The position numbers and the translations under genes are program-made. Shown here piece by piece: positions 5,533 to 33,954 of a stretch of 64,000 nucleotides of DNA (its first letter is position 1; every line of letters begins with the position of its first letter). This DNA comes from a virus: positions 32,001-96,000 of IMG/VR virus record IMGVR_UViG_3300008113_000014, one strand, 5' to 3'. The notes beneath the pieces were generated by a model. It searched no databases and was not told the DNA's origin. It saw only the letters and a program-made list of their open reading frames with translations.

Positions 5533-5554
5533 GAGCTGTATTATTAAGTTTTTA

Positions 5555-6904: not shown

Positions 6905-7575
6905 TATTTAATCCCCGCATTCGCTATCCATCTATATCCTACCTGAACACCCTTTGATCTACCAGAAAGCTTTCCTGATCTTAGATTTCTTGAGTATACA
7001 ACTGGGTTAGATAGGTATGCTTGTACACCACTTATCCTTAAGAATGCTTGTGTAAAGTATCTATTAAAAAATGTATCAACTATATTTTGAAAAGATCCTT
7101 CAACCTGATTTCCACCAGGATTTACTACTACAACCTTGCCTTTAGTGAAGACTGTATCTCCGCCATCTTCAAAAACCAAGACGCTTGCCTTCTTTGGTTT
7201 AATGGTTACTGGAGTTCCTTCTTCCATTATTTTAGCCTTATTATAAAAAGGTACTGACGAGCCATCTTTAATTGATGTTGATTGCTTCATGGTTGACACA
7301 AACGAAAGGCCAAGGTTGCTTATTGTGTAGTTTATATCGTATAGACGTGCATCAGGACTTCCCACTTTATACCATTCATATATATGGTGTAGTGCTTTTG
7401 GATTTACCCTGGCATTTGAGTCTATATATTCTTTCAATATTTCAGATGTTAGTTTACCCATGTTATTTAAAAACTTTGTTTTTCCTGCTTGTGCGCCCTC
7501 TAAAAATCCAACAGAGTAGTCAATTATATTTTTCATTTCTTTTTTAAACATCTTATCATTCATTATAACTCTCAT
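6904..7575 (-). CDS. Putative neck/tail-completion protein
   Basis: Synteny; translationally coupled to its neighbours. Confidence 0.5.
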   Translation of the reverse strand: MRVIMNDKMFKKEMKNIIDYSVGFLEGAQAGKTKFLNNMGKLTSEILKEYIDSNARVNPKALHHIYEWYKVGSPDARLYDINYTISNLGLSFVSTMKQSTSIKDGSSVPFYNKAKIMEEGTPVTIKPKKASVLVFEDGGDTVFTKGKVVVVNPGGNQVEGSFQNIVDTFFNRYFTQAFLRISGVQAYLSNPVVYSRNLRSGKLSGRSKGVQVGYRWIANAGIK

Positions 7576-8021
7576 TATAAATCACTTGCCTGATTCTCTG
7601 ATCGTCTTAATACTACCTTATGATATTCAACTGTACCAAATGGACCAACAATAGCTTCTGTTGTAGCAATTTCATAGATAGTGGATTTGCCATCTCTTGG
7701 TCCAGATGTCTCTATATAGATGGAATCTTCTTGGGTTGTTCTTATATTTGTAATAAGCACATTTGTTACTGCATTTCTTGAGTTACCCTTGCCAAACCTT
7801 AAGTCTGACCTTACTCTCCCAATTAAAATATTTTCTTTGGTAATGTTTACATTAGGCTTAACTTCTTCTTTGCCAACTATGCCAACTGGACCAAAATTAC
7901 AAGCTACAGATCTATCAAGAATCCATTGCTTTTTTAAGTTTCCGTAAACACCTTGCTCAACAACTGGATAGTAAACATCTGCAAGTAATGGATATATAAA
8001 GTCTGTTGATTCGCATAGCAT
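7575..8021 (-). CDS. Putative head-closure (stopper) protein
   Basis: 148 aa, beta-rich; position after the adaptor. Confidence 0.55.
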   Translation of the reverse strand: MLCESTDFIYPLLADVYYPVVEQGVYGNLKKQWILDRSVACNFGPVGIVGKEEVKPNVNITKENILIGRVRSDLRFGKGNSRNAVTNVLITNIRTTQEDSIYIETSGPRDGKSTIYEIATTEAIVGPFGTVEYHKVVLRRSENQASDL

Positions 8022-16334: not shown

Positions 16335-16414
16335 TTTTATATACCTTTCAAAGTAAAATTAACGGAGTGCTTTATGTTCTCTAAAGCAGTACTTAAGTAT
16401 AACACACTTTAAAA

Positions 16415-16440
16415 AGAAAAACACGCTCATAAAGAGCGTG
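16415..16440 (-). terminator. Intrinsic terminator after fibre gene
   Basis: CACGCTC-TTTAT-GAGCGTG followed by TTTTTC on the minus strand. Confidence 0.7.
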
Positions 16441-16483
16441 TAAATCTTTAGTATAGAGTTAGTACTCTATTATTTAATAAGTA

Positions 16484-19429
16484 CTATGCTTTTATATCTC
16501 CAGATAGTAACCATGCATCTGTTGCTACCTTTGTAAGTGTAGCAGATGAGTAGAGTGCTCTTAGAGTATTTCCTGGTGCTGCATAGATTGTTACTCCAGC
16601 TGCTGCTACAAAGTTTGCTCCACCTGCTCCAGATGATTGCCAGAAACTAATTGATGTTCCTACTGGAAAAGCAGTTGTTGCCATAGTTGGAACCGTTACT
16701 GCATATGCTCCTGAAATTTGAATTAACTGATCTCTCAGAGCAAGCCCACCTGTTGATAAGTTGTAGGCTGCTCCAATTGTAGTTGTTGTAGTTGTTAGTG
16801 ATGGTACACCAGCTTTTGTCTGAGTACCGTCTGTAAACGCTACACCTGAAGCAGAGGCTGTAATTAAACCTGATGCTGTAACTGCTGCTGCATTTACAGT
16901 GCCTGTGAATGTTGGTGATGCTAGAGGTGCTTTATTTCCAAGTGCAGTTGTAATGGTTGCTGCGTAGTTTGCATCATCACCAAGTGCTGCTGCGAGTTCA
17001 TCAAGAGTGTTAAGTGCTGCTGGTGCACCAGTTGTTAAAATAGCAAGTTCTTGCTGAACGAAACTTGTTGTAGCAACTTGTGTTGTATTAGTTCCAGTTG
17101 CTGCAAGTGGTGCAGTTGGTGTTCCAGTAAGAGCTGGAGATGCTAATGGTGCCTTAAGTCCTAGGTCTGTAGTAAGACCTGAAATTTTAGACTGAGCAAT
17201 TCCTGCTGCTGAAGCAATATCTCCATCAACAATTGTTCCATCTGCAATCATTCCTGATGTAACAGTTCCTGCTGGAAGAGTTACAGTGCCTGTAAATGTA
17301 GGTGATGCAAGTGGAGCCTTAAGAGCAAGTGCTGTTGATGTAGCATCTGAAATTGGCTTAAGTGCATCTGATGTATTGTCTGCGTTACCAAGGCCAACCA
17401 TAGACTTGGTTACACCAGAAACGGTGCCAGTAAATGTTGGTGAGGCAATTGGGGCTTTAAGATCAAGTGCTGCTTGTGTAGCGCTTGATATTGGTTTTAG
17501 AGAATCTGTTGTGTTGTCAACGTTAGCAAGACCTACCATTGTCTTAGTTATACCAGCAACGGTGCCAGTAAATGTTGGAGATTCAAGTGTAGCGTAACCT
17601 GAAATTAGTGCTCCTGTAGGTATTGTAACTGTTCCTGTAAATGTTGGTGAGGCAATTGGGGCACGTAGACCAAGAGCAGTTTGTGTTGCTGTTGAAACTG
17701 GCTTTGCAGTATCTGCTGTGTTATCAACGTTTCCAAGACCTACGTGTGCTTTTGTAACACCAGAAACTGTTCCTGTAAATGTTGGTGAAGCTAGTGGAGC
17801 ATATGTAGATGCTGCTGTAGAAGATGCAAGCTTAAGATCAAGCTGTGTTTGTGTAGCAGTTGAGATTGGTTTGTTTGCGTCTGTTGTGTTATCAACATTT
17901 CCAAGGCCAACGTGTGCTTTTGTAACACCAGCAACTGTTCCTGTGAATGTTGGAGAAGAAAGTGGAGCGTATGTTGTGCTAGCAGCTACTGCTCCAAGCT
18001 TTGAAGCAAGTTGTGTTTGAATATTTTCAGTTAATCCATCAAGGTATCCAATTTCAGTATTAGATACTGAACCAACAGTTAATGATGTTGCTTCAAGTGC
18101 ACCAACTGCAAGGTCATCAAGTGATCCTTGTCCAAAATTAACAGTAGTTGTTGGTGCATCAGCAACTCCCTTAAACAGTTTCCATTTTGCATCAGATGAG
18201 TCCTTTACAAAACCTTGATGTTTAGCTGTTCCATCGTTGTATGAGCCTACAAAACCAATATCTACAAGGTTGGCAGCATTACCACTACCAAGATAAATTA
18301 CTGGGTCTTCAACTGTAAGATTTGTTGTGTTTACAGTTGCACTTGTTCCAGAAACTGTTAAGTTACCGTCAACAATTAAATCATTGCTAACTGTAAGGTT
18401 GACTGCAGTTGCTGTACCAGTTAATGCTGGGCTAGCAAGAGGTGCCTTAAGATCAAGTGCTGTTTGTGTAGCGGTTGAAACTGGCTTTGCTGCATCTGAA
18501 GTATTATTTACATCTGCAAGTCCAACATGTGCCTTTGTTACACCGCTTACAGTTCCAGTAAATGTTGGGGATGCGATAGGTGCTTTAAGGTCAAGCGCTG
18601 CTTGTGTGGCTGTTGAGATTTGCTTATTTGCGTCTGATGTATCGTCTACGCTTGTAAGGCCAACCATTGCTTTTGTAATACCAGATACAGTTCCTGTAAA
18701 TGTTGGGGAAGCAATTGTGGCTCTAAGATTAATTTGATTTTGAACATTAGCTGAAAGTCCATTAAGGTATCCAATTTCAGTATCGTCAACGTTTGCAACT
18801 TTTGCCTGGAATGCTGTTGCATCAACGGCAAGTGAAATTGTGTTTCCAGGATCACTGTATGTCTTTAAAAGACCATTTCCAGCAACTATAGCAGTGTCAA
18901 TAGCATCCTGTGAAAGTTCTGCAATGTCTGCTGAGTTTGCCTTTAAATTCAGTGCAGTCTGTGTAGCTGTAGAAACAGGCTTATCAGCATCTGATGTATT
19001 GTCAACATTTCCAAGACCAACATCTCCCTTTACCAATCCTGCTGGAGATGTAATAGTTTTATTTGTTAAAGTTTGTGTTCCTGTTGTTGTAACTAAAAGT
19101 GAAGTATCTGCAATACCGTGGATGGCTGTTGTATCTGCTTGGTGGTTTGAAAGGTTTGTGGCAACTGTTGTAAAGAAAGCTGGATCATCGCCAATTGCTG
19201 CTGCAAGCTCATCAAGAGAGTTGAGTAGTCCTGGCGCACCTGCAATTGTTGTAGCAAGGTCAACGAAGTATGCTAGGTTTACCCAGTGGTTTACTCCATC
19301 ACCAATCTTAAATTTATTTGTGTCTGACTCATAACCAATTTCACCTATTGCTAGAATTGGCCCATTTCCACTATTTGTAGAGATCCACTGCGCTGCAGTG
19401 CCTCTACGTTGTTGCATTCTTGTTGCCAT
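16484..19429 (-). CDS. Fibre protein with Mtd-N-like N-terminus and ~45-aa internal repeats
   Basis: QQRRGTAAQW...GEIGYESDT.KFKIGDG N-terminus; repeated VGLGNVDNTSD..KP.STATQ.ALDLKAP.ASPTFTGTV units. Confidence 0.8.
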   Translation of the reverse strand: MATRMQQRRGTAAQWISTNSGNGPILAIGEIGYESDTNKFKIGDGVNHWVNLAYFVDLATTIAGAPGLLNSLDELAAAIGDDPAFFTTVATNLSNHQADTTAIHGIADTSLLVTTTGTQTLTNKTITSPAGLVKGDVGLGNVDNTSDADKPVSTATQTALNLKANSADIAELSQDAIDTAIVAGNGLLKTYSDPGNTISLAVDATAFQAKVANVDDTEIGYLNGLSANVQNQINLRATIASPTFTGTVSGITKAMVGLTSVDDTSDANKQISTATQAALDLKAPIASPTFTGTVSGVTKAHVGLADVNNTSDAAKPVSTATQTALDLKAPLASPALTGTATAVNLTVSNDLIVDGNLTVSGTSATVNTTNLTVEDPVIYLGSGNAANLVDIGFVGSYNDGTAKHQGFVKDSSDAKWKLFKGVADAPTTTVNFGQGSLDDLAVGALEATSLTVGSVSNTEIGYLDGLTENIQTQLASKLGAVAASTTYAPLSSPTFTGTVAGVTKAHVGLGNVDNTTDANKPISTATQTQLDLKLASSTAASTYAPLASPTFTGTVSGVTKAHVGLGNVDNTADTAKPVSTATQTALGLRAPIASPTFTGTVTIPTGALISGYATLESPTFTGTVAGITKTMVGLANVDNTTDSLKPISSATQAALDLKAPIASPTFTGTVSGVTKSMVGLGNADNTSDALKPISDATSTALALKAPLASPTFTGTVTLPAGTVTSGMIADGTIVDGDIASAAGIAQSKISGLTTDLGLKAPLASPALTGTPTAPLAATGTNTTQVATTSFVQQELAILTTGAPAALNTLDELAAALGDDANYAATITTALGNKAPLASPTFTGTVNAAAVTASGLITASASGVAFTDGTQTKAGVPSLTTTTTTIGAAYNLSTGGLALRDQLIQISGAYAVTVPTMATTAFPVGTSISFWQSSGAGGANFVAAAGVTIYAAPGNTLRALYSSATLTKVATDAWLLSGDIKA

Positions 19430-22401: not shown

Positions 22402-22626
22402 TCAAAGTATATAGTTACTAAAGCCAATAATTTGCAACGGGATTGGTACAACAGTAGATAAACCACTAGCCTCAATCCGTATTGCTGTTAATCTAATTCT
22501 AAAGGGTAAAACAGAGTTAATTGTAACATTTTTACTTGGTGCCCTGACAGATGCTTTTATTGAAAGATCTTGTTCAATTCTTTTTGTAAATACTGGCTGC
22601 TTGTCATAAATCTTAACATTAGCCAT
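22402..22626 (-). CDS. Hypothetical protein
   Basis: ORF coupled to the upstream stop. Confidence 0.55.
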   Translation of the reverse strand: MANVKIYDKQPVFTKRIEQDLSIKASVRAPSKNVTINSVLPFRIRLTAIRIEASGLSTVVPIPLQIIGFSNYIL

Positions 22627-23039
22627 TATGCAGTCACATCTTCAAGGACAATAAGTTTGCCTTGAGCTACCGTCCAAACTATTGCATCTTGCGGTAAAGA
22701 AACCTCAATATCAAAAATATCATTTGTTCGTAGTGTTGCAGTTTGTGCTGGTGATAATGAAACAGTAAACTCACCATCTAGATCATCTGCATCTTGAATT
22801 GGAACTAAGGTTAAAAGAAGTGTTGCTGTGTCTGTTATTTCTCCAGGAACAACTGGTGTTGTAGTAGGACGCTTGATCTGCATAGAAATATTCCAGTCAG
22901 GAATTTCCAATGGTACTTTTGCATCATCTGTTAAATAAACCTTAAATGCTGCACTATCTCCCTTGACAAAAGTCCAATTAACGAATGGTGGAGCTTCTCC
23001 AATATCGTATGTAGACGCTTGTCCTCTATATGTAGCCAT
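22626..23039 (-). CDS. Fibre adaptor-like (BppU-N-like) protein
   Basis: WTFVKGDS...FDIEV pattern, similar to 33553..33954 and 50381..50731. Start MATYRG is 7 nt after TGGTATAAT. Confidence 0.6.
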   Translation of the reverse strand: MATYRGQASTYDIGEAPPFVNWTFVKGDSAAFKVYLTDDAKVPLEIPDWNISMQIKRPTTTPVVPGEITDTATLLLTLVPIQDADDLDGEFTVSLSPAQTATLRTNDIFDIEVSLPQDAIVWTVAQGKLIVLEDVTA

Positions 23040-23191
23040 TTTTATATTATACCACGATGAAAATAAGAAATTAAGAGATTTAAAATAATTTAAATAAATA
23101 TCACAAAAACTTGCTTTTTGGGGAATTTGGATGCTATACTTAGAGAGTGCTACCAACTGGTAGCATCTTTAGTCTCTAGGAGGTTATTATT

Positions 23192-23764
23192 ATGAGAAGA
23201 GATAAGAAGGTTTGGATTGGAATCCTTGCACTACTTGGGTTGGTTGCTCCTTTGAGTAATTCAGCCAATGCTTTAAATACCGAAAATAATCTAAGTAAAA
23301 CAGAAGTTCTTGCTATGCCAACCGCCAAAGCGGTTTTTTTGCTTTCTAAGCCTAAAAGTCTGGTAGCAGTAAAAAAAGACTTAAACGTTCTGCACAAGTA
23401 TCAAGATGCCATTAGTCTGACAGATCGTCAACTAAAGGAACTTCTTCATGCCGTTGGTTTCCGTGGAGAGGGCCTTGTAAAAGCTTGGGCGGTAGCTAAG
23501 AAAGAATCTAATGGTCGTCCAATGGCTTTTAATGGTAATGAAAAGACTGGGGACAATTCTTATGGTATATTCCAGATAAATATGATTGGAATGCTAAAGG
23601 ATGGTCGCAAAGAAAAGTTTGGCATTAACTTTAACAGTGAATTGTTAAACCCTGTTATTAATGCACAGGTTGCCTATCATATGAGTAATGGTGGTAAAGA
23701 TTGGTCTGCTTGGCATGGAATAACGCCAAAGACTAAGGTTTGGATGAAGAAGTTTCCTATTTAA
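23192..23764 (+). CDS. Secreted lysozyme-like/lytic transglycosylase
   Basis: Signal peptide; AKKESNG catalytic Glu, SYGIFQIN and WSAW motifs; AGGAGG RBS. Confidence 0.8.
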   Translation: MRRDKKVWIGILALLGLVAPLSNSANALNTENNLSKTEVLAMPTAKAVFLLSKPKSLVAVKKDLNVLHKYQDAISLTDRQLKELLHAVGFRGEGLVKAWAVAKKESNGRPMAFNGNEKTGDNSYGIFQINMIGMLKDGRKEKFGINFNSELLNPVINAQVAYHMSNGGKDWSAWHGITPKTKVWMKKFPI

Positions 23765-24348
23765 AAAGGAAGATCTTTATTTAACGTTACTGGGTATTCG
23801 TCATTACCCCTCATAAAGATAGTTGAAAAATATCTTGTAGTATCATTTAGGACTGGTAATGAGCCATGCAGTATTTCTCCTCCGTGAATAAGGGCAGATC
23901 CTGCTTTTGGTTTAATTGTTATTCCTAATTCTGGATAGTCAATCTCTCCACCAAGATAGTCATTATTATAGTAAATTACGATGCCGTATCCAAGATAATA
24001 CCCTTGTGGGGTTGTGTCATTATCACGATGCTGACCAATTGCTTCTTCCTCTTTAAATCTAGATATTTTTATTTCTTTTTCACAGTAATAATATGATGGG
24101 AATATGTAATCAACTTTATCAAAAATAGCAGTCTTGCAAAATTCATTATTTTCACCAAGGAATAAGCTTTTGCCATACCAAAAATCATTCTCATCACCAA
24201 TATAGTTTTTGTCATGCCATTGATCTTCAGTTGCTTGATTAATAATAGCCAAAATTGACTCTAGCTCTAAAGAATCTAAAAAGTTTTCAATTTCATAAAC
24301 ATCTTCAGCAAGTTTGTTAATTTTAAAATTATACATAGGGCTAACCAA
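23761..24348 (-). CDS. 2OG-Fe(II) oxygenase (prolyl-hydroxylase-like)
   Basis: HRD...YYNNDYLGGE...HGS...R. Confidence 0.88.
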   Translation of the reverse strand: MVSPMYNFKINKLAEDVYEIENFLDSLELESILAIINQATEDQWHDKNYIGDENDFWYGKSLFLGENNEFCKTAIFDKVDYIFPSYYYCEKEIKISRFKEEEAIGQHRDNDTTPQGYYLGYGIVIYYNNDYLGGEIDYPELGITIKPKAGSALIHGGEILHGSLPVLNDTTRYFSTIFMRGNDEYPVTLNKDLPF

Positions 24349-25009
24349 ATTTACTACTATTAATATGATTTAGCTCAATATGATTAATGTTAACATGGCT
24401 TGGTAGATCAGATACCCAGCGAATGCACTCTGCCATATCCTCAGCGGTAATAGCACTATCACGTCTTTCTTCTTGTGTATCAATTGTGCCTGGACAAATT
24501 TCAGTTATTTTAATACCATATTGAGGAAATTCTAGCCTCATTGTATCTACCAATGCCATCTGACCTCTTTTAGCATTAATGTAATTGCCTCCAGAACGGT
24601 ACGGAACCTTACCACCCAATGAGCTAACAAAAATAATGGTTGGGTTAGTGGACTTTTCCATTGCTGGTACAAATAACTGAGAAATATACATTGGCCCTGT
24701 TACATTAATATCATATGCAATTCTAAAGTTTGCTGGTGTTTCATTAATAATCATTGTTGGACTAGATCCACCACCTGCATTATTAACTAGCAAGTCTAAA
24801 GTGATGTCTTTATATTTTTCAGCAAATAGTTTTATTTGGTCAGAGTCTGTAACATCTATCTGATAAATTTCAACATTGTCTGAAACAAGGTCTAACATTT
24901 TAGAGATATTTCTTGATGCTGCGATTACCTTGTATCCACTTTTTTCAAGAAGCTTTACGGTTGCTCTTCCAACACCCTTGCTTGCTCCAGTAACTATTGC
25001 TGTTTTCAA
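24341..25009 (-). CDS. Short-chain dehydrogenase/reductase
   Basis: TGASKGVG, NNAG, SS and YINAK catalytic motifs. Confidence 0.92.
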   Translation of the reverse strand: MKTAIVTGASKGVGRATVKLLEKSGYKVIAASRNISKMLDLVSDNVEIYQIDVTDSDQIKLFAEKYKDITLDLLVNNAGGGSSPTMIINETPANFRIAYDINVTGPMYISQLFVPAMEKSTNPTIIFVSSLGGKVPYRSGGNYINAKRGQMALVDTMRLEFPQYGIKITEICPGTIDTQEERRDSAITAEDMAECIRWVSDLPSHVNINHIELNHINSSKFG

Positions 25010-25741
25010 TTACATGCTCTGACTAGAATTAAGGCTCATGTGGTTATGAATCCAGTGACCAGGAACCATAAACTTATACCCAGACTTAACTACGTGTGCT
25101 GTGTGAAAGTATGGAGCGTATGCTGGAAATATAACAACGCTATTTGCTTTAGGTTTTAAACCAAAATCAATAGATTTATCAGCAACTGCAACATCATAGT
25201 CTAAGTCTACTGCTGGAGCACCTCTTACCCATCCATCAGAACTTGTCCATCCTCCATCATAATCTTTTAGCTGGAAAGAGATTTCTCCACCCTCACAGTC
25301 ATCATTGAGGTACATGACTAAAGAATATCTTAGGGTTTGGTCTCCATCTAATTGATCAAAGTGTGCCCCCATGCCCATTCCAGTATTATATTTTTTTATA
25401 TTAAAGGTTGGAAAAAGCCTTGGCTCATCAAAATCCCCCAAAGAAGATGCGTAGTCTTTGCAAACATTGTACATCGTAGTCATAATAGCGTCATATATAT
25501 ATTTACTTTTTTCTGCTACTTCTCCACTAAGGTTGTTTATTGCGTTTACGTCAAATGTTTTTGTTTCTCCATAAATAAAAGTTTTGTCGTTAGAAGATGT
25601 CCAAGGGTTCCAAACATTTACACCTAACTCACTGTATTGCTCAAGAGTATCTAGATCTTTCCAAACCTTTTTAAAGGTATCAAAATCTTCTATTGCATCA
25701 GTATAGTAATAAGTTTTTGGATCTAGTTTTTCTACGTTCAC
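25010..25741 (-). CDS. 2OG-Fe(II) oxygenase
   Basis: HFD...YLNDDCEGGE...HTA...K. Confidence 0.88.
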   Translation of the reverse strand: MNVEKLDPKTYYYTDAIEDFDTFKKVWKDLDTLEQYSELGVNVWNPWTSSNDKTFIYGETKTFDVNAINNLSGEVAEKSKYIYDAIMTTMYNVCKDYASSLGDFDEPRLFPTFNIKKYNTGMGMGAHFDQLDGDQTLRYSLVMYLNDDCEGGEISFQLKDYDGGWTSSDGWVRGAPAVDLDYDVAVADKSIDFGLKPKANSVVIFPAYAPYFHTAHVVKSGYKFMVPGHWIHNHMSLNSSQSM

Positions 25742-25750
25742 CTGTTCTCC

Positions 25751-26422
25751 TTAGTATTTGTTGTTTTCATAGTGGTTTTTTTCTTTAATAAATCCTACTA
25801 TAACATATCTTATTGGTCCTTCTCCAACATGCTTTACTCCATGCTCGTGCTTATTGTCCCCTGGAAAAAACAACAAGTCTTTTGGCTTTGGTCTTAATGA
25901 TATTCCAAGATTTGGAAAGAACAGCTCTCCTTCTACATAGTCATCATTTATATATATAATTGTTGCATATTTTATTGATGGGTCTGTATGCTGATCTGTA
26001 TGAGATTTTAGTTCAACTCCTTTTTGCATTCTTTGAATTGTTGCTAATCCACTTAACATTAATAAAGGATCTGAATCATCAACCATTGTTGATAATCTTT
26101 TATAAAAAACTTGCTGCTCTTTATGATGCTTTATGTTTAAATTTTTATCTGCCCAGTTTTGTGTGATTTCAAATTTTCCTTCAGCAACAAGGTTGTCTAC
26201 ATCATCTCTTCCAAACTTTTCCATACAAAATCTAGCAAGATTTGTTGTATATTCTATTTCCCAGTCTGCTTGTGATGCATTATCTATGCATTTTAAAACA
26301 AAGTCTAGATCTTCATTTGTAAAAAAATCTTTAATCCAAAGAATTTCATCTGTAACTTCTTCAAATACAAAATTATTTTCTTTAAGTTTTTCTTTAAACT
26401 TTTCAAGCATTTGGCACCTCAT
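25751..26422 (-). CDS. 2OG-Fe(II) oxygenase
   Basis: HTD...YINDDYVEGE...HGV...RY; true start probably the ML at 26410. Confidence 0.88.
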   Translation of the reverse strand: MRCQMLEKFKEKLKENNFVFEEVTDEILWIKDFFTNEDLDFVLKCIDNASQADWEIEYTTNLARFCMEKFGRDDVDNLVAEGKFEITQNWADKNLNIKHHKEQQVFYKRLSTMVDDSDPLLMLSGLATIQRMQKGVELKSHTDQHTDPSIKYATIIYINDDYVEGELFFPNLGISLRPKPKDLLFFPGDNKHEHGVKHVGEGPIRYVIVGFIKEKNHYENNKY

Positions 26423-27158
26423 TAGAGTTATACTTATTTCCGTCCTTGTCTAGCTTCCAGCCTTGCTTAAGCAATTCTTGCCATTCTGCTCTTTCAATTT
26501 CTTGTTTTGCTCTAGTTTCTTTCATTTCTGCAGCCCAGGCATCTCTTAATTCTTGTGGGTATGCATCTTCTTCTCTGTCGTCCCAAAAAGAACCAATTGT
26601 ATATCTAACTCCCTTAGTAATAAGGCTTACCTCGTGCATGTTATTAAATCCACCATCAAAAGCAGCAAGCATTCCAACTTTAGGTTGTAGACTTATCTCT
26701 TGATCTGGGAACTGTAACATTCCACCATCAAAGTCATCGTTCAAATATAAGAATGCTGCATATCTACTTCTTGTAAATGCACCAGAGTGTCCGTGTTCGT
26801 CTGTGTTGTCAGAGTGTTTTCTTGCATACGCTCCTGGCTCCCACTTTTGTGTGTGATAACCAATTTGAGAAATTATTTTTGGATCAAGGTCGTGAACGCT
26901 TGCAACTGCATCAATAATTCCTTGTTTTATTTGTGAAAATATGTCACTTGGCAATCCTTCATTCTTTACATGCTCGTCGTCATCTTGTGGTAAAACAGAA
27001 GAGTATGATTCATAAAAAGATATAGGCATCCAGGTAATCAATTCAAGTTCTGCATGCTTGTCTAAAACTTTTACAAGTTTAGCAGCAGTTTCTGAATCAA
27101 TAAAGTTTTCATAAACAACAATGTCTTTTGTTATTCTAGTTTTATTGGTTAAGTTCAT
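26403..27158 (-). CDS. 2OG-Fe(II) oxygenase
   Basis: HSD...YLNDDFDGG...HEV...RYT. Confidence 0.88.
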   Translation of the reverse strand: MNLTNKTRITKDIVVYENFIDSETAAKLVKVLDKHAELELITWMPISFYESYSSVLPQDDDEHVKNEGLPSDIFSQIKQGIIDAVASVHDLDPKIISQIGYHTQKWEPGAYARKHSDNTDEHGHSGAFTRSRYAAFLYLNDDFDGGMLQFPDQEISLQPKVGMLAAFDGGFNNMHEVSLITKGVRYTIGSFWDDREEDAYPQELRDAWAAEMKETRAKQEIERAEWQELLKQGWKLDKDGNKYNSNEVPNA

Positions 27159-28027
27159 TTTATTCTCACAGCTCCCTCTATCTCATTTCTTTGTGGGTTG
27201 TCTATTCTAAACTGCTCGTTCAGCTTTGGTTGCATGCTAGACCAAACATCTTTTCCAAATTCTTTTTCTTTCTCATACCATTCATCTGTTCCTTTTTGAT
27301 ATTTTTGCCAATACATTCTTGCTAAAAATTTGTTTTTGTTATAAGACGGCATAACCCCATGTAAGTATGGTTTGTCATCCTCTGTTAAGTAATCTGGGTG
27401 TCCTGATGGAAAAACTAAAAGATCTCCAGCTTCTGGCTTGTACTTAACAAGTTTGTCTCCCATAGCAAAGTCAATTTCTCCACCTTCATAGTCATCATTA
27501 AAATAAATTGTACATGTTATTATAAACTTATATCCTGGAGCAGATCCTTGCTCTCTCATATAGTCTGAATGATATCTCATTCCATGTTGTTCTTCTTCGT
27601 TGCTGATATGATACTTTCCTATTGTTCCACCTGTCCATCTCCAGGTTGGAATAAGATCGCCTGATTCGTCTATGGACAATGACTCTAAATCTACATCAAT
27701 GTTATATTTTTTAATATAGTCTTCTGTAACTAAATGAAAGTTTTTCATCATTTCTATACCAAATTGTTTTTGGTTTTCTTCAATTTCTGTTTTTGTTTCA
27801 ATGCTTTCTAAACCTCCATCTTTATAATCCATAGAAAAAGAAGGTGTCATTGGATTTAAATATTCTCCAAAAATAGACCACTTTGTCCAAGGATTAAAAA
27901 GTCTATCTTCTGACTCTATTAAAGAATCTGTTAAAACCTTATAAGATTTTGAAATATCTTTAAACATGTTTTTATAAACAAGAATATGTGGATATATCTC
28001 TACAGATTCAAGAGCTGGAGTAGTCAT
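27155..28027 (-). CDS. 2OG-Fe(II) oxygenase
   Basis: HSD...YFNDDYEGGE...HGV...K. Confidence 0.88.
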   Translation of the reverse strand: MTTPALESVEIYPHILVYKNMFKDISKSYKVLTDSLIESEDRLFNPWTKWSIFGEYLNPMTPSFSMDYKDGGLESIETKTEIEENQKQFGIEMMKNFHLVTEDYIKKYNIDVDLESLSIDESGDLIPTWRWTGGTIGKYHISNEEEQHGMRYHSDYMREQGSAPGYKFIITCTIYFNDDYEGGEIDFAMGDKLVKYKPEAGDLLVFPSGHPDYLTEDDKPYLHGVMPSYNKNKFLARMYWQKYQKGTDEWYEKEKEFGKDVWSSMQPKLNEQFRIDNPQRNEIEGAVRIK

Positions 28028-28702
28028 TTATGGTTTCCTGTCTCCAGTGTGCTCTGTAATTTCCCAGAAAAATGGGCATGTAAATCTTAATCCACTCTTT
28101 ATCTCAGTCACTCCGTGAATATAGTTTTTGTCTCCTGGGAAGAAGTAAGCTGCACCTTTTTTTGGTTTAAACTGTACACCTTGTAGTGGGAAATACAGTT
28201 CTCCTCCCTCATAGTCTTCATTTAAATAGAACAAACTAGATAAATCATAATTAGGAAAATCGTTTGGAAGTCCAGCGTCTGGGCCATCGTGAAGTTCTTT
28301 GTCTGCGTGAGGTTTTTGAAATTGTCCTGGAAGCCACTTTACTATAGTGGTACCTGTAGGGATAACCTTTACTTTGTAAAACTCTTCTACTATTGGTTGT
28401 AGTCTTTGAAATAGTCCAGCAATGACTGGGGAAATGTTTGGATCGTTTTTATCTAGGCTTGGTTGAGTTGCTACTCTATCTTTCCAATAATCAGAATCAT
28501 AAACAACCGTTCCATTTTCATTAACATGACTTTGTGTTACATCCCAAATTGTCAAAGATTTTGCAGATTTTTCTAAAAACTCTATTTCTTCTTGAGTCAT
28601 AAAGTTTTCTAGCTCAACGATCATGTCTTTGCTATCACCAAACCAGCCAGATGGTGTGAGTGAAGCCTTTCTAACTACAACAGAAGCATCCATTTTATCC
28701 AT
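28028..28702 (-). CDS. 2OG-Fe(II) oxygenase
   Basis: HAD...YLNEDYEGGE...HGV...RFT. Confidence 0.88.
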   Translation of the reverse strand: MDKMDASVVVRKASLTPSGWFGDSKDMIVELENFMTQEEIEFLEKSAKSLTIWDVTQSHVNENGTVVYDSDYWKDRVATQPSLDKNDPNISPVIAGLFQRLQPIVEEFYKVKVIPTGTTIVKWLPGQFQKPHADKELHDGPDAGLPNDFPNYDLSSLFYLNEDYEGGELYFPLQGVQFKPKKGAAYFFPGDKNYIHGVTEIKSGLRFTCPFFWEITEHTGDRKP

Positions 28703-28704
28703 AA

Positions 28705-29433
28705 TTAGATTATACCATTTCCCTTGTTTGATGTATTATCAGTAACAGAAAGACGTAAAACCTTAGTTTCGTGAGAACCCGTACTTTCACCTTTTTCATT
28801 TACTGCATCTCTATACCAGTCAGTCCATTGTCCAGACTTGTTGATTTCTTGTGCAGCTTCACCATACGACTGATGAGCCATCTGCCTTTTTCTATCTACA
28901 TCTGAATAATCAATTATTTGAATTGATGTATTGTCCATTGCCGTCAAAGAAATTGGAATTATTGTAGCAATTGGGGTTCCTGCTTTTATAGTAATTTCCT
29001 TGTTTGCAGATCTTGCTTTAATTGCTAATGGAAAACCAGTATCAAGCCAAGATGTAGATATTAAAGATGACATTGTTTCAAAATCATCATTAAAGTAATT
29101 AACTGGATTAATTGTAAGCATGCTAACGTTTTGCTCAGATCTAAAAGTTAGGCCAGTATGTAGGCTAACTGTAGACTGCCCTCTTCCAGTATATGTAAAG
29201 TCTGAACCTTCTAGTATAGTTACATTCTCTGAACTTGTATCATTTATACCGTTCCAAATAAACTTAATGTCTTCAGTACATGAAAGACTCCAGCCAACCA
29301 TATTCGCTTGTGTAACTGGAAAACATCTATAGGCATGCTTTTCTGGAGTTACATCCATCCAATCTCTTTTAATTGACATTGGAGAAAGTATGATTTTTGA
29401 ATCTGGAAATCTTTCAGCTGATATATTAAGCAT
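28705..29433 (-). CDS. DUF6065-like protein
   Basis: RDWMD...HAYRCFPVTQAN..GW and AGTPIATIIP motifs. Confidence 0.7.
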   Translation of the reverse strand: MLNISAERFPDSKIILSPMSIKRDWMDVTPEKHAYRCFPVTQANMVGWSLSCTEDIKFIWNGINDTSSENVTILEGSDFTYTGRGQSTVSLHTGLTFRSEQNVSMLTINPVNYFNDDFETMSSLISTSWLDTGFPLAIKARSANKEITIKAGTPIATIIPISLTAMDNTSIQIIDYSDVDRKRQMAHQSYGEAAQEINKSGQWTDWYRDAVNEKGESTGSHETKVLRLSVTDNTSNKGNGII

Positions 29434-30089
29434 TAGTCTTTGTCTACCATATACATTTCGTTAGTGTGAAACTTTTTGTTATAATCAAGCATTGTTACAA
29501 TAGAATACTTTGTTCCTGAAATAACTGGCATTGCACGATGAGGATACATGAAGTTTGATGGAAAAATAAATAAATCTCCTGCATCTGCCTTAATGTCTAG
29601 GTTCTGGAGTCTAAAGAAAAGTGAACCGCCTTCATAGTCATCATTTGGGTATGCAACAAGTGACACTGTGCAGTTATAAGAAAAACCATGATCATGGTGT
29701 TCTTGAAAGTGTTGTCCTGGTCCATATTTAATAAAATTAAAAGCTTCCCAATACTTTAAATCCATTATGTTGTAGTCTTTTCTGTAATCATCAACACATG
29801 GAGACTTAACATCATATAGATCTTGCCAAAGCTCTTGTAGTTTTATTGAGTCTGGTGTTTTGTTTTGTTCAATATCAGTTTTCTTATACTTAAAATCTAC
29901 ACAGTCTCTGTAGTCTGGAATTAGCTGCTGGTATCCAACATATGCTGGTTGCCAAGTAAATTGTTCTTTTGAACCTAGTGGCTTTACAACAGATTCAATT
30001 CTGTTTATCACATCAATATCTTTATTAATGACACCTTTATAGCATACAATACCATTACCATAGTTAACCTTTTCTGTCCAAGTTTGCAT
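29433..30089 (-). CDS. 2OG-Fe(II) oxygenase
   Basis: HHD...NDDYEGG...FPSNFMYPH...KYS. Confidence 0.88.
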   Translation of the reverse strand: MQTWTEKVNYGNGIVCYKGVINKDIDVINRIESVVKPLGSKEQFTWQPAYVGYQQLIPDYRDCVDFKYKKTDIEQNKTPDSIKLQELWQDLYDVKSPCVDDYRKDYNIMDLKYWEAFNFIKYGPGQHFQEHHDHGFSYNCTVSLVAYPNDDYEGGSLFFRLQNLDIKADAGDLFIFPSNFMYPHRAMPVISGTKYSIVTMLDYNKKFHTNEMYMVDKD

Positions 30090-30097
30090 TTTTCTCC

Positions 30098-30874
30098 CTA
30101 TTTATATTCTCTTCTAGACCAAACTTTATTTTTATAAATACCGCCGTCTGGTTGGCGATAAAAATTTGCATTGGCTATCATTTTAGCATATATCTTTTCT
30201 TGATTTTGAAACTCTATCTCATGGCTCCAGTTTTCTCTTTTAAATGGTAAAATTTGGACATATGGAGTCCCTGCTGGTATTGTTCCTTCCCAGCCTTCTG
30301 CAATAAAAAATGGAAAGGTACCAAGCAGGTGAACACTGTCATTATCAACAACACCAGTTGTATTAATAAATGGAAGATCAAATCTATTCATAGGTGTCAT
30401 AAATAATGCACTATATCCTTCTGGAAGTTCAAATCCCCAATCTGGATACCAGGCAAAATGATCTTTGTAAAATCCTTTTGGGTGCTCAAACTGTGGCATA
30501 GCAAGTCTTTTTCCACAAAAATCTTGATGTCTTTTATCTTCTATCTTAACATCTATTGATCCTGTCTCAGTTTTAAAAAAAGTAAGGTCACAAGGAGTTC
30601 TTAATACATATCCTGTTGAAAACCCATCCATAATTGCTGGACAAGCTTTCCATGTAGGTATTTTTCCATAGTCATCTGTAGTTCCTTCTTTTGGAAAAGG
30701 ACAAACTTCTTTTGGTGCTTTGTAGTATTCACCAGTTGGCATTTTTGCAAATCTGTCGGCATCTTTATACCATTGTGGTATTTCAGACTGTGTTGTTTTA
30801 GGCACTGATTTACTATCCTTGTTTAACCAAGGCCTAAAAGATCTAAAGATTACTAAATTATCTTTTAGACTCAT
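30098..30874 (-). CDS. DUF6065-related protein
   Basis: KACPAIMD..STGY...PCD and AGTPYVQILPFKRE motifs. Confidence 0.65.
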   Translation of the reverse strand: MSLKDNLVIFRSFRPWLNKDSKSVPKTTQSEIPQWYKDADRFAKMPTGEYYKAPKEVCPFPKEGTTDDYGKIPTWKACPAIMDGFSTGYVLRTPCDLTFFKTETGSIDVKIEDKRHQDFCGKRLAMPQFEHPKGFYKDHFAWYPDWGFELPEGYSALFMTPMNRFDLPFINTTGVVDNDSVHLLGTFPFFIAEGWEGTIPAGTPYVQILPFKRENWSHEIEFQNQEKIYAKMIANANFYRQPDGGIYKNKVWSRREYK

Positions 30875-31586
30875 GATGATGCCCTAATAAATTAATATCT
30901 GTCATAATTACAACACAATATTTTGTTCCAGATATCATTGGAAGAGATGCATGTTCATATATATAGTTTGATGGGAAAATTGCTATGTCTCCAACTTTTG
31001 GTGTTAGTGTGTATCCATCTAATCTTGGAAATTTAATTTCTCCACCTTCGTAGTCGTCATTTATATATATAACTGCAGAAACTGTAGTATTGTATGCTGG
31101 TCCATGGTCGGCATGAATATTAAAGTGCTTACCCTGTCCCTCATACTTTACAAAATTAAAAGCTTCATAGTATATAACATTTATTCCCCAATATTTTGCA
31201 TAGTCATCTATGCATAGTTTTAATTTTTGATAAATCTCTTCGTGTAAATCAATTAGTTCACCATTAAACTCATCTCGTGGACCAAGATTTTCTTGCTTAT
31301 ATCTAAAATCTACAGCATCTCTTGCTTTTTTTATTGGTGTAGTAGCATTGGTTACTTGTGCTTCTGACCACTTATACTTTCTACCATTAGACAAATTGGA
31401 CTCAAGAATATTGATGTATCTTTTAGAGTCCTCCAAAGAAAACGTATTTCTGTATATATTTAATCCAAGTCCTGGATTTTCTATTACAATATTTTTTTCA
31501 GATATATCTCTATTAACCCTATTTGATACAGTCTCAGATCTATCTTTAGTAAACCATGGGTTTTCATTTTCATCATAAGTGTTCAT
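30858..31586 (-). CDS. 2OG-Fe(II) oxygenase
   Basis: HAD...YINDDYEGGE...FPSNYIYEH...KY. Confidence 0.88.
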   Translation of the reverse strand: MNTYDENENPWFTKDRSETVSNRVNRDISEKNIVIENPGLGLNIYRNTFSLEDSKRYINILESNLSNGRKYKWSEAQVTNATTPIKKARDAVDFRYKQENLGPRDEFNGELIDLHEEIYQKLKLCIDDYAKYWGINVIYYEAFNFVKYEGQGKHFNIHADHGPAYNTTVSAVIYINDDYEGGEIKFPRLDGYTLTPKVGDIAIFPSNYIYEHASLPMISGTKYCVVIMTDINLLGHHHESKR

Positions 31587-31739
31587 CTTTATCCCCTTTT
31601 TATTTATTATACACTACCTTTATCTTTTTGTAAACAAAAACAACCCTTGTTGCAAGTATTTTGCAAGACATGAATGATAGCACTCATAAAACACAAAAGG
31701 CCAAACAATGTTGGCCAATTGTATTACTTCTTTTTTATT

Positions 31740-32705
31740 TTACTGTACACCTGGAAGTGTAAAGTATGGGAAGTAAGGGTTATTTGCAGGGAAGTATGGG
31801 AAGTACGGTGGGAAGAATGGGAAGTAAGGGAAGTAAGGGAAGAATGGAGGGAAGAATGGGAAGAACGGGAAGTAAGGGAAGAAAGGTGGGAAGAACGGGA
31901 AGTATGGGAAGAACGGGAAGAAAGGTGGGAAGAACGGGAAGAATGGGAAGAACGGAAAGAAAGGTGGGAAAAATGGTGGGAAGAATGGGAAGAACGGTGG
32001 GAAGAACGGTGGGAAGAACGGAGGAAAGAACGGTGGGAAGAAAGGTGGGAAAAACGGAAAGAATGGGAAAAATGGCGGAAAGAATGGACCGAATGTAGAA
32101 ACAACAGAATTAGATGGTTGTGATGCTGCAGATGTTCCATTTGCATTTACTGCGGTAACGGTATAAGTATAAGTTCCAGCAGCAATTTCTGTAATAGTAA
32201 TTGGTGAAGCAGAACCAGTTGCAGTACGTCCAGATGAAGATGTTACAGTGTGGAATGGTGAAATTAAAGCTGAGTTTCCAGTATTTGGACTTGTAAATAT
32301 AACAGATACTACACCAGATGTTCCACCAGATGCAGATCCAATAGTTGGAGCGTTTGGCTTTGATGTTGGAACAACGGCTGCTGAGGCAGCAGATGCTGGT
32401 GATGATCCTATTGCATTTCTTGCAGTGACTGTAAAGGTATAATTTGCTGGAGTGCCAGTAGTTGACATTCCTGTAACAACTATTGGCGAAGATGCGCCAG
32501 TGGCTGTAAATCCACCAGCATTAGATGTGACTGTGTAATCAATGATTGGCATCTTGCCATCAAAAGCTGGTGGTGTAAATGCTACTGATACCTGTCCGCT
32601 ACTATATGTCCGACCTGAGCCTTGAACAGTAACTGCACCAATAGTAGGAGCTTGTGGGACTGATCTTTTTGAAGATTCGGTGGTACCATTATTAATTTGG
32701 CTCAT
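31740..32705 (-). CDS. Two fibronectin type III domains plus a ~110-aa Pro/Phe/Tyr repeat tail
   Basis: YTFTVTARNAIG and YTYTVTAVNANG Fn3 motifs; C-terminal (PFF/PPFF/PYF)n. Confidence 0.85.
   Translation of the reverse strand: MSQINNGTTESSKRSVPQAPTIGAVTVQGSGRTYSSGQVSVAFTPPAFDGKMPIIDYTVTSNAGGFTATGASSPIVVTGMSTTGTPANYTFTVTARNAIGSSPASAASAAVVPTSKPNAPTIGSASGGTSGVVSVIFTSPNTGNSALISPFHTVTSSSGRTATGSASPITITEIAAGTYTYTVTAVNANGTSAASQPSNSVVSTFGPFFPPFFPFFPFFPPFFPPFFPPFFPPFFPPFFPFFPPFFPPFFPFFPFFPFFPPFFPFFPYFPFFPPFFPYFPFFPFFPPFFPYFPYFPFFPPYFPYFPANNPYFPYFTLPGVQ
31765..32090 (+). repeat. Purine-rich 9/12-nt repeat encoding the Pro-Phe tract on the minus strand
   Basis: GGGAAGAAC/GGGAAGAACGGT-like units with synonymous variation. 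Confidence 0.9.
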
Positions 32706-32745
32706 AGCAGTAATTGTACCATAAGATTATACACTTTTTGATATT

Positions 32746-33456
32746 TTATCTAACAAATATGTACATATTTTTAGCGACCATTGAGGCATCGTTATCTGTC
32801 AGTATTTCTGGGAAAGCTCCATAATTCCTAACCATATCGTTTTCTACCACAAAAGTATGCTCTAGCGAAATATCATATGAAAATTGATATTTTAGGTTTG
32901 CAGCAAAAGTAGTTGGGCTAATACCTGAATCTGGGATATAGGTCTTGAACCAAACTTCCGTATTATTACTAAATGTTGTTAAGACTATATCATAACGAAC
33001 TGTTACAATTGATCCAACCTTTAATGCTGTTAGGTTTATTTTTTGTGACTGTGCATTATACAAAGAGACATTATTTTCTGGTAAGTATTGTTCATTATTC
33101 TTGCCTTTGCAGTCAAAGTTAAATCTGACCCATCCGTCATTTCCTTTTGTAGCACCTAAAATAATATTTTTTTGATCTTTATTTGTGTATAGGGCCCAGC
33201 CAGATTTTTGTCCTGATGGAGATAGACCACTATCCCCTGCTTTTCCGTCTCTGCCATCTTTTCCAGGCTTTCCAGCCTCTCCTTGAGGTCCTGGTATGCC
33301 TTGTATTCCAGTATCCCCTGTGTCGCCTTTTGGCCCTCTTTCTCCTTGGGCTCCAGGAACTGCAACATATGAAATTGATTGTTCTAGCTCGTATGGTTGA
33401 ACAATGTTGTCTGAATATTTTTTTGCTTTACCTGGAAAATCCATGCTTTTTGCCAT
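32746..33456 (-). CDS. Collagen-like (Gly-X-Y) virion protein
   Basis: GAQGERGPKGDTGDTGIQGIPGPQGEAGKPGKDGRDGKAGDSG. Confidence 0.8.
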   Translation of the reverse strand: MAKSMDFPGKAKKYSDNIVQPYELEQSISYVAVPGAQGERGPKGDTGDTGIQGIPGPQGEAGKPGKDGRDGKAGDSGLSPSGQKSGWALYTNKDQKNIILGATKGNDGWVRFNFDCKGKNNEQYLPENNVSLYNAQSQKINLTALKVGSIVTVRYDIVLTTFSNNTEVWFKTYIPDSGISPTTFAANLKYQFSYDISLEHTFVVENDMVRNYGAFPEILTDNDASMVAKNMYIFVR

Positions 33457-33466: not shown

Positions 33467-33553
33467 CTATTTCTTAACCTTGAATACCTTTGTGCCAATT
33501 TTAATAATTGGAGGCATTTTTGTTGTTTGAACAGTAGCTTTTACAACTGGCAT
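33467..33553 (-). CDS. 28-aa basic peptide MPVVKATVQTTKMPPIIKIGTKVFKVKK
   Basis: TAATG overlap with the upstream stop; GGAGG RBS; fills the gap. Confidence 0.55.
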   Translation of the reverse strand: MPVVKATVQTTKMPPIIKIGTKVFKVKK

Positions 33554-33954
33554 TACAAGCCTCCTGGAGTAATATCGCCAAGCACACAAATTGATCCAAT
33601 TACTGGAGTCCAGACTGTGTTCTCTGATTCTCCTTGAGATTTTGGAATTGTTGCTTGTAAATCAAATGGTAGTTCTGCTACAACTGAGGTGTATTTGCTT
33701 CCCCAATTTTGTGTAATGTCTGATGAAATAAAAATTGTTGCGGTATGACCAGAAACAGTTACTTTAAGCTCATCAAGAATATCACCAGCAGGATCGTAGG
33801 CGGTAGATGAGAATGACCAAGTACTAATATTCCATCCAGTAACCTCGTCGTCTTGAAGGAATTGAACAGCAAGGGTAGAAGAGTCTCCACGCACAACAGT
33901 CCATTGGATATGAGCTGGTGTGGCTCCTAATTTCTCTGTTGTTGGGGTGCACAT
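33553..33954 (-). CDS. Fibre adaptor-like protein
   Basis: WTVVRGDS...FDLQ...WT pattern; paralog of 22626..23039. Confidence 0.6.
   Translation of the reverse strand: MCTPTTEKLGATPAHIQWTVVRGDSSTLAVQFLQDDEVTGWNISTWSFSSTAYDPAGDILDELKVTVSGHTATIFISSDITQNWGSKYTSVVAELPFDLQATIPKSQGESENTVWTPVIGSICVLGDITPGGL

Follow-up and report, generated by a model that had tools for sequence, protein, structure and literature searches.

Proline-phenylalanine repeats in fibre-region proteins of an uncultured lake phage occur together with a battery of prolyl-hydroxylase-like enzymes

Tandem arrays of viral dioxygenases have been described previously. The array of Synechococcus phage Syn9 (gp41-gp54) comprises 10 dioxygenases, 2 tryptophan halogenases, and a protein with a dUTPase fold and a conserved cysteine, has a JmjC/MINA-like member, and was interpreted as a secondary-metabolite pathway by Iyer, Abhiman, de Souza and Aravind in 2010 (PMC2938197). 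Chlorovirus PBCV-1 encodes a single prolyl 4-hydroxylase (P4H; PDB 5c5t), which is active on peptides and for which the virus's own (PAPK)n-type Pro-rich repeats are the proposed substrates (Eriksson et al. 1999, as cited in PMC9301287). Bacillus anthracis P4H (3itq, 5hv0) and the animal collagen P4H and P3H enzymes act on Pro in extended peptides. In addition, T4-like cyanophages carry multiple 2OG-Fe(II) oxygenase genes (Sullivan et al. 2010, PMC3037559), and 'P4HA' is an abundant auxiliary gene of aquatic viruses (PMC9301287). The use of such genes has been called cryptic (PMC9301287), or guessed to lie in DNA repair, 2OG turnover or secondary metabolites (PMC3037559, PMC2938197).

Here, we analysed a 64,000-nucleotide stretch of an uncultured lake phage genome (the window), in which a first-pass annotation had noted an 11-gene, tightly coupled run of eight HxD...H oxygenases, one SDR and two DUF6065-like proteins, directly downstream of a collagen-like protein and of an Fn3-Fn3 protein ending in a Pro/Phe/Tyr tract, and placed between two fibre modules. 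This observation was confirmed, with all of the genes located on the minus strand (Table 1). The 11 enzyme genes overlap or abut. However, the Pro-Phe gene is followed by a terminator-like hairpin and by the best promoter-like site of the region, and is therefore, on these sequence features, a separate transcription unit. In addition, a second Pro-Phe-tailed protein, a multi-Fn3 protein of 1135 aa, is encoded outside the window, about 45 kb away (positions 15370-18777 of the phage genome, G000; minus strand).

Table 1. Features of the Pro-Phe and oxygenase locus, numbered from the first letter of the window.
Position	Strand	Feature	Supporting data
33553..33954	-	phrog_1084-like small protein heading the fibre module; a paralog at 22626-23156 heads the next fibre module	PHROG hits at 6e-06 and 9e-12
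32746..33456	-	Collagen-like fibre protein; about 14 Gly-X-Y triplets, then a globular C-terminal domain	PF01391, 30.6 bits; tail-fibre PHROGs; conserved neighbour upstream of the Pro-Phe gene in close relatives
31740..32705	-	Fn3-Fn3 protein with a C-terminal Pro-Phe tail; candidate substrate	fn3, 7e-08 (Pfam sees one fn3 domain); second half is a 45%-identical duplicate of the first
31743..32093	-	Pro/Phe/Tyr tract, residues 205-321; PFF, PPFF and PYF units, ending ...PYFPYFTLPGVQ	Same end motif on the second Pro-Phe protein and in 11 relatives
31699..31716	-	Terminator-like hairpin plus T-run, directly after the Pro-Phe gene	
31606..31634	-	Promoter-like site TTTACA-17-TATAAT ahead of the first oxygenase gene	11 of 12 matches
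30858..31586	-	Oxygenase 1 (ox1); P4H-like, Lys type	PF13640, 4e-11; triad present
30098..30874	-	DUF6065-like protein A (dufA); predicted dUTPase-like fold, invariant Cys78	No Pfam hit; hhalign to the dufB family 97.4%, E 1e-11; phrog_7084, 7.6e-31; AF2 pLDDT 92.5; top Foldseek hits dUTPase and dCTP deaminase
29433..30089	-	Oxygenase 2 (ox2); P4H-like, Lys type	PF13640; triad present; 43% identical to oxygenase 1
28705..29433	-	DUF6065 protein B (dufB); predicted dUTPase-like fold, invariant Cys37	PF19541, 1.8e-31, 109.9 bits; phrog_7084; AF2 pLDDT 91.6; VIA Z 10.4, rmsd 2.6 A over 115 residues to dUTPase 8y1q
28028..28702	-	Oxygenase 3 (ox3); Arg type	PF13640; triad present; orthogroup kept even in the divergent phage group
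27155..28027	-	Oxygenase 4 (ox4); Lys type; accessory	PF13640; triad present; absent from many relatives
26403..27158	-	Oxygenase 5 (ox5); Arg type	PF13640; triad present
25751..26422	-	Oxygenase 6 (ox6); Arg type	PF13640; triad present
25010..25741	-	Oxygenase 7 (ox7); Lys type, with a long insert	PF13640; triad present
24341..25009	-	Classical short-chain dehydrogenase/reductase (SDR)	PF00106, 1.5e-39; no specific NCBIfam family; position conserved in relatives
23761..24348	-	Oxygenase 8 (ox8); Arg type; accessory	PF13640, 23.3 bits, below the cut-off; triad present; best PDB hit PBCV-1 P4H, at E 0.22 only

Seven of the eight oxygenases scored above the PF13640 cut-off of 27 bits (36.6-47.6 bits), and only ox8 scored below it. 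In the alignment of the eight paralogs, which are 23-43% identical to one another, H158, D160 and H212 of the iron-binding triad are invariant, and a basic residue for the 2OG C5 carboxylate, Lys in four and Arg in four, lies about 10 residues after the distal His. The best solved relatives are B. anthracis P4H (1.4e-11), P3H1, PBCV-1 P4H (2.7e-07), PHD2 and LH3. Two paralogs also gave weak, sub-threshold Tet_JBP hits, although these two still match P4Hs best. These results indicate that the enzymes are P4H-like, whereas hydroxylation of peptidyl proline is inferred from this relatedness alone.

For dufB, the top 19 rows of the structural comparison were all dUTPases, dCTP deaminases or viral proteins of the dUTPase fold, and Foldseek agreed for the models of both DUF6065 proteins. 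In contrast, neither protein gave a dUTPase Pfam hit at E <= 0.01. W, C, G and N are invariant across the phage, Syn9 and alphaproteobacterial members of the family, which is found in phages, haloarchaeal viruses and about 10% of sampled Alphaproteobacteria. The cellular genes in Alphaproteobacteria have no oxygenase neighbour.

The DNA units encoding the Pro/Phe/Tyr tract are only 70-84% alike and use mixed Pro codons. To examine whether the tract and the enzymes occur together across phage genomes, a test that had been set beforehand, 120 viral loci were fetched solely by a DNA pattern coding for FFPPFFPPFFP. Within 15 kb or less, 90 of these contain a P4H-like ORF and 68 contain a DUF6065 homolog, whereas a homolog of the collagen-like gene is present in only 13. 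On whole contigs, 46 of 49 carry PF13640, typically in 6-11 copies, compared to 5 of 40 in a control set fetched by an unrelated fibre motif (Fisher odds ratio 107, p = 6e-16), although most loci are from related freshwater phages and the counts are thus not independent events. The three control contigs with clustered oxygenases each have a Pro-Phe-like ORF beside the cluster. Conversely, all 44 loci that were fetched by dufB and have at least 4.5 kb of upstream DNA carry a Pro-Phe ORF 2.6-4.8 kb upstream on the same strand, with tracts varying from 22 to 144 residues. The pattern was not found in 400 sampled cellular genomes of the phylum to which one MAG carrying phage-like contigs belongs.

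The gene order Pro-Phe gene, ox1, dufA, ox2, dufB, ox3, (ox4), ox5, ox6, ox7, SDR, (ox8) is conserved among relatives. A divergent group keeps the Pro-Phe gene together with ox3-like, ox2-like and dufB-like genes even where gene orientation has changed, and dufB identity falls to about 20-25% across the set. In addition, the tract sits on different N-terminal domains, namely two Fn3, one Fn3, a 60-aa non-Fn3 region, and Cys-rich proteins, and in one protein it is an internal linker. Fibre genes flank the locus here and in the divergent group. A literature search found no paper describing the repeat.

The phage is a complete 109-kb siphovirus-like genome from freshwater metagenomes, and as it encodes WhiB, its host is probably an actinobacterium. 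We consider it somewhat more likely than not that the oxygenases hydroxylate the Pro-Phe tracts of fibre-region proteins after translation. In this view, the main targets would be prolines, with different paralogs taking different positions or sequence contexts, and Phe/Tyr side chains are also possible targets, whereas the DUF6065 proteins and the SDR would perform accessory steps. The product would be a polar, stiffened stalk or adhesive tail on the virion, comparable to hydroxyproline-rich proteins. The present analysis establishes the genes, their catalytic residues and predicted folds, the strong two-way linkage of tract and enzymes across diverged phages, and the fibre-module context. 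In contrast, that the tract is the substrate, which residues are modified, that the protein is part of the virion, and every role given to DUF6065 and the SDR are inferred, as the reading rests on gene linkage without chemical or proteomic evidence. Several findings also weigh against it: the terminator-like and promoter-like elements suggest that the Pro-Phe gene and the enzymes may be expressed at different times, the second Pro-Phe gene lies far from the cluster, eight or more enzymes are many for a substrate made of three residue types, Syn9 has such an array without a Pro-Phe tract, and the cellular DUF6065 genes in Alphaproteobacteria have no oxygenase neighbour. The dUTPase-like fold of DUF6065 and the Syn9 array keep a non-protein substrate possible. 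The interpretation in the first-pass annotation, that the adjacent Pro-rich proteins are substrates for hydroxylation, possibly followed by redox steps or glycosylation, is therefore partly supported; no sign of glycosylation genes was seen in the cluster.

It remains possible, but unlikely, that the array is a small-molecule or free-peptide pathway, as proposed for Syn9, and that the Pro-Phe gene is a neighbour only because both occupy the variable region next to the fibre genes. Syn9 gp43 matches the dufA and dufB profiles (6.6e-12 and 9.3e-10) and keeps the invariant Cys, and no Pro-Phe-coding pattern was found in the Syn9 genome, so that such arrays do not need this tract. An SDR and a dUTPase-like fold, which could point to a nucleotide ligand, would suit small ligands, and the enzyme operon has its own promoter-like site. 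However, mere shared location does not explain the association in both directions or its persistence through inversions and across unrelated N-terminal domains, the cluster has no scaffold-building enzyme such as an NRPS, PKS or ATP-grasp ligase, and the nearest solved relatives are protein prolyl and lysyl hydroxylases. Similarly unlikely is action on other targets, such as host proteins (for example translation factors), other virion proteins such as the collagen-like fibre, or nucleic acids, with an unrelated structural or adhesive role for the tract. The conserved collagen-like neighbour in close relatives, the top PDB hit to B. anthracis P4H, the Tet_JBP hits, two further PF13640 genes away from the cluster, and the location of cyanophage 2OG genes among replication genes favour this view, whereas the rarity of the collagen-like gene relative to the constant tract, the better P4H matches of the Tet_JBP paralogs, and the absence of both tract and cluster from cyanophages with dispersed 2OG genes argue against it.

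Least likely is the alternative offered in the first-pass annotation, a RiPP-like multi-core precursor; on this reading, the tract would be oxidised and then cut out as small, possibly cyclic, Pro-Phe peptides. The tract is a repeated core-like sequence tightly linked to the enzymes, short forms exist with a roughly 60-aa N-terminal part and a tract ending in ...FK, and some variants carry a Hint-like self-cleaving domain after the tract, albeit with a weak Pfam Hint_2 hit (E 0.003). Nevertheless, no protease, cyclase, transporter or exporter was found among the 11 operon genes or in the conserved order in relatives, and the tract is fused to Fn3 domains and to the 1135-aa fibre-region protein, varies in repeat number, and serves as an internal linker. 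More speculatively, and with low probability, the oxygenases, the SDR and the two Cys-bearing proteins with a predicted dUTPase fold might together convert the plain (PFF/PPFF)n tail into a multiply oxidised, possibly cross-linked or covalently anchored polymer on phage fibres, for which the Hint-like domain of relatives could serve the anchoring. This would be a new virus-made protein material and a new class of multi-enzyme post-translational pathway in bacteriophages, and would explain why 'P4H' genes rank among the most abundant auxiliary genes of aquatic viromes.

A constant, easily synthesised candidate substrate next to the enzymes brings the role of these abundant phage oxygenases within reach of a simple bench assay. 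If the substrate reading is confirmed, these genes would be virion-tailoring rather than metabolic genes, protein hydroxylation would be revealed as a phage structural strategy, and DUF6065 would obtain its first functional context.

Compared to the described systems, the oxygenases belong to the same Pfam family as those of the T4-like cyanophages, with the nearest cultured-phage hits 25-41% identical. However, the genes in S-SCSM2R are interspersed with replication genes (recA, DnaB helicase), and S-SCSM2R, S-T4 and S-SCSM1 have no Pro-Phe tract beyond chance-level hits. The HxD...H triad and Lys-type 2OG binding are shared with B. anthracis P4H and animal collagen P4H/P3H, whereas identity is low and confined to the catalytic core, and the substrate here would lack glycine and is aromatic-rich. 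As in PBCV-1, enzyme and Pro-rich repeat proteins are encoded by the same virus, here two Pro-Phe-tailed proteins and one collagen-like protein alongside eight P4H-like genes; the locus differs in having eight paralogs plus accessory proteins in a bacteriophage and a Pro/Phe/Tyr-only tract, with substrate use inferred rather than shown on peptides. With the Syn9 array, the locus shares many diverged dioxygenases in tandem and a protein of predicted dUTPase-like fold, for which gp43 has the invariant W, C, G, N and P residues, and the Syn9 array also lies directly downstream of tail-fibre and fibre-assembly genes. In contrast to the halogenases and the JmjC/MINA-like member of the Syn9 array, all 11 operon genes here are accounted for as PF13640, DUF6065-like or SDR, and the locus carries two DUF6065 paralogs, an SDR and a constant Pro-Phe repeat partner.

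The 108,863-bp IMG/VR virus record, of which the window covers bases 32001-96000, is rated as complete by CheckV. The window carries a tape-measure gene, a portal, a protease, a major-capsid-like protein, a ribonucleotide reductase (RNR) and two large fibre genes, all on the minus strand, as well as five tRNAs. It also carries a WhiB gene, which suggests an actinobacterial host, and the G+C content of the genome is only about 37%. A megablast search with the locus found no close relative among cultured phages. A tblastn search with the Pro-Phe protein found nothing, probably because of the low-complexity filter, and a tblastn search with dufB (DUF6065-B) also found nothing. A scan of genome contigs with the single protein returned only phage-like contigs binned into unrelated Lake Mendota MAGs, indicating that the lineage is freshwater, whereas the binning gives no host assignment.

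The first-pass annotation had described eight HxD...H 2OG-Fe(II) oxygenases, one SDR and two DUF6065-like proteins, next to an Fn3-Fn3 protein with a Pro-, Phe- and Tyr-rich C-terminus and a collagen-like protein, and everything that it listed is present. Seven oxygenases pass the PF13640 cut-off, and the eighth falls just below it. All eight keep HxD...H, with a Lys in four and an Arg in four as the 2OG-binding residue. The paralogs are only 23-43% identical to one another, so they are old and distinct. The second DUF6065-like gene has no Pfam hit but is a true homolog of the first, as shown by hhalign (97.4%) and by the shared phrog_7084. The Fn3-Fn3 assignment also holds, since Pfam finds one fn3 domain and the second half of the protein is a 45%-identical copy of it. 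The Pro-Phe tract covers residues 205-321. Its DNA units are 70-84% alike with mixed Pro codons, and therefore the peptide, not the DNA, is conserved. The possibility that the repeat is a non-coding product of slippage was rejected, because the units are only 70-84% alike, the Pro codons are mixed, and the Pro-Phe frame is kept in more than 100 loci.

Two amendments to this description are required. A terminator-like hairpin follows the Pro-Phe gene, and the strongest promoter-like site of the region precedes the first oxygenase, so that the candidate substrate and the enzymes are separate transcription units. In addition, the genome encodes a second Pro-Phe-tailed protein in the tail region outside the window, which has 1135 aa and several Fn3 domains. 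It ends ...PFFPPYFAGPYFPYFTIPGAE, nearly the same ...PYFPYFT(I/L)PG end motif as in the protein within the window.

To examine the linkage between the tract and the enzymes, viral contigs were fetched using only a DNA pattern that encodes FFPPFFPPFFP. The pattern occurred in at least 120 loci, and of the 120 that were retrieved, 90 contained a P4H-like ORF and 68 contained a DUF6065 homolog within the 15 kb or less that was fetched. On whole contigs, 46 of 49 carried PF13640, mostly in 6-11 copies. In contrast, in a control set fetched by an unrelated fibre motif (LASPTFTGT), 5 of 40 carried PF13640 (Fisher odds ratio 107, p = 6e-16). The three control contigs with clustered oxygenases had a Pro-Phe-like ORF right beside the cluster, one of which is a PPxFFx variant. 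Conversely, all 44 loci that were fetched by DUF6065-B and had enough upstream sequence carried a Pro-Phe ORF 2.6-4.8 kb upstream on the same strand.

The gene order is conserved as COL (the collagen-like gene), PF (the Pro-Phe gene), ox1, dufA, ox2, dufB, ox3, (ox4), ox5, ox6, ox7, SDR, (ox8), where ox4 and ox8 are accessory oxygenases. A divergent group, on contigs with an estimated full size of about 150-215 kb, keeps PF together with ox3-like, ox2-like and dufB-like genes, some of which are inverted, and these again lie next to fibre-like genes. The loci are related phages, and the counts are therefore not independent events. Even so, the link survives down to about 20-25% identity of dufB and through rearrangements.

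The tract is modular. It follows two Fn3 domains, one Fn3 domain, a 60-aa non-Fn3 region or Cys-rich domains, and in one 973-aa protein it is an internal linker between small Cys-containing domains. It can be followed by nothing, by Cys-rich knots, or by a Hint-like domain that starts C-x-x-D/E-T-L and ends in ...HNK, for which the Pfam Hint_2 hit is weak (E 0.003). The Hint-like domain hints that, in these relatives, the C-terminus of the tract is released or ligated by self-cleavage. What stays constant next to the enzymes is therefore the tract, not a particular protein family. The tract composition differs between the groups, with 42% PFF and 57% PPFF units in the main group, compared to 97% PPFF in the divergent group, which has fewer core enzymes. 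This difference fits motif-specific enzymes but is confounded by ancestry. The coding pattern was not found in 400 sampled cellular genomes of the phylum to which one MAG carrying such phage contigs belongs.

For the oxygenases, a profile of the eight paralogs found B. anthracis P4H first (1.4e-11), followed by P3H1, PKHD/PiuC hydroxylases, PBCV-1 P4H, PHD2 and lysyl hydroxylases, whereas Tet-like enzymes appeared only at about 5e-4. A DNA-modification reading was considered because of weak Tet_JBP Pfam hits in two paralogs, but both of these still match P4Hs best. NCBIfam gave nothing specific for the SDR or the oxygenases.

For DUF6065, the predicted models of both proteins are confident (pLDDT 91.6 and 92.5), and both resemble dUTPase and dCTP deaminase. 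For dufB, the structural comparison gave Z 10.4 and an rmsd of 2.6 A over 115 residues, and the top 19 rows were all dUTPases, dCTP deaminases or viral dUTPase-fold proteins. In contrast, neither protein has a dUTPase Pfam hit. One Cys, one Trp, one Gly and one Asn are invariant across the phage, Syn9 and alphaproteobacterial members. Among 301 sampled Alphaproteobacteria, 30 (one of them an unpublished genome, G093) carry DUF6065 as a single-copy orphan gene, with no oxygenase within 8 kb and no conserved neighbour, which gave no functional clue. The Pfam model is centred on these cellular proteins. Among cultured phages, searches with dufA hit only haloarchaeal myoviruses (HF1, HF2, HRTV, HCTV), where the gene stands alone between baseplate-region genes and RNR with no oxygenase annotated nearby. 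A search of the ESM Atlas returned only unnamed viral clusters, and a profile search returned 1841 unnamed metagenome proteins. The coordinates of these features, and of further genes seen in the genome and in related loci, are collected in the table.

Features of the phage genome outside the oxygenase operon and of related loci (G000, the whole virus genome; L numbers, individual fetched loci)
Feature	Sequence	Coordinates	Strand	Remarks
Second Pro-Phe-tailed protein	G000 (L001), outside the window	15370-18777	-	
WhiB-family gene	window	63008-63181	-	PF02467, 42 bits
phrog_1084-like small protein	window	33553-33954	-	paralogous to 22626-23156; each heads a fibre module, one on either side of the oxygenase operon
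phrog_1084-like small protein	window	22626-23156	-	paralogous to 33553-33954
PF13640-type oxygenase	window	55701-56474	+	away from the cluster, in the non-structural part of the genome
PF13640-type oxygenase	G000	99779-100030	-	away from the cluster, in the non-structural part of the genome
Lysozyme-like (SLT_3) protein	window	23192-23764	+	hydrophobic N-terminal segment; opposite strand, directly after the last oxygenase
Ribonucleotide reductase	window	14301-16334	-	inside the structural gene run, between the fibre genes and the portal
Pro-Phe tract with Hint-like domain	L043 (relative)	6071-7390		
Pro-Phe tract with Hint-like domain	L033 (relative)	3-782		
Pro-Phe tract with Hint-like domain	L113 (relative)	3560-6478		
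Pro-Phe tract with short Cys-rich tail	L007 (relative)	609-1610		six to nine Cys in about 25 residues; similar loci L024, L051, L074, L082
Syn9 gp43	L373 (Synechococcus phage Syn9)	14055-14843		DUF6065-like superfamily
DUF6065 gene	L227-L236 (Alphaproteobacteria genomes)			Pfam E about 1e-95 to 1e-104
DUF6065-A-like gene	L237 (Halorubrum tailed phage 5, gene 36)	6830-7672		

The most economical explanation is that the oxygenases hydroxylate the Pro-Phe tracts of fibre-region proteins, with the SDR and DUF6065 carrying out further, unknown steps, and we consider this somewhat more likely than not. The genes, their conserved catalytic residues and their linkage to the tract are established by the analysis, whereas hydroxylation of the tract and the steps ascribed to the SDR and DUF6065 are inferred in the complete absence of chemistry. 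The proposal of the first-pass annotation that the adjacent Pro-rich proteins are the substrates is partly supported. The separate transcription units, the relatedness of the loci, and the counter-example of Syn9, discussed below, also weigh on this reading. The other explanations appear less likely. A small-molecule pathway, as proposed for Syn9, and other targets of the oxygenases, such as the collagen-like fibre, host proteins or nucleic acids, are each considered unlikely. A RiPP-like precursor is considered the least likely, and it is weakened by the lack of any protease, cyclase or exporter and by the fusion of the tract to large structural proteins.

Reviews of aquatic viromes still call the use of viral P4H cryptic, and cyanophage genomics lists 1-5 such genes per genome without a function. 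No paper in the literature searched contains PPFFPPFF-type strings or mentions DUF6065, and the Pro-Phe partner is therefore not published. The present analysis adds an eight-oxygenase plus SDR version of the system, the second Pro-Phe-tailed protein, the terminator and promoter boundary, the predicted fold and invariant Cys of DUF6065 with its direct link to Syn9 gp43, and an explicit control set.

In contrast, the pairing of a dioxygenase array with a dUTPase-fold Cys protein is already published for Syn9, where it was read as secondary-metabolite synthesis (Iyer et al., 2010; PMC2938197). Syn9 gp43 matches our dufA and dufB profiles (6.6e-12 and 9.3e-10, respectively) and keeps the invariant residues, and the array lies directly after the tail-fibre and fibre-assembly genes, whereas Syn9 has no Pro-Phe-coding pattern. 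The cyanophages S-SCSM2R, S-T4 and S-SCSM1, which carry several 2OG genes, also lack the tract beyond chance-level hits, and in S-SCSM2R the 2OG genes are interspersed with replication genes. We place the locus beside two known arrangements, viral P4H with its own Pro-rich repeats and the Syn9-type dioxygenase arrays, and it differs from the array of Syn9 in its Pro-Phe partner.
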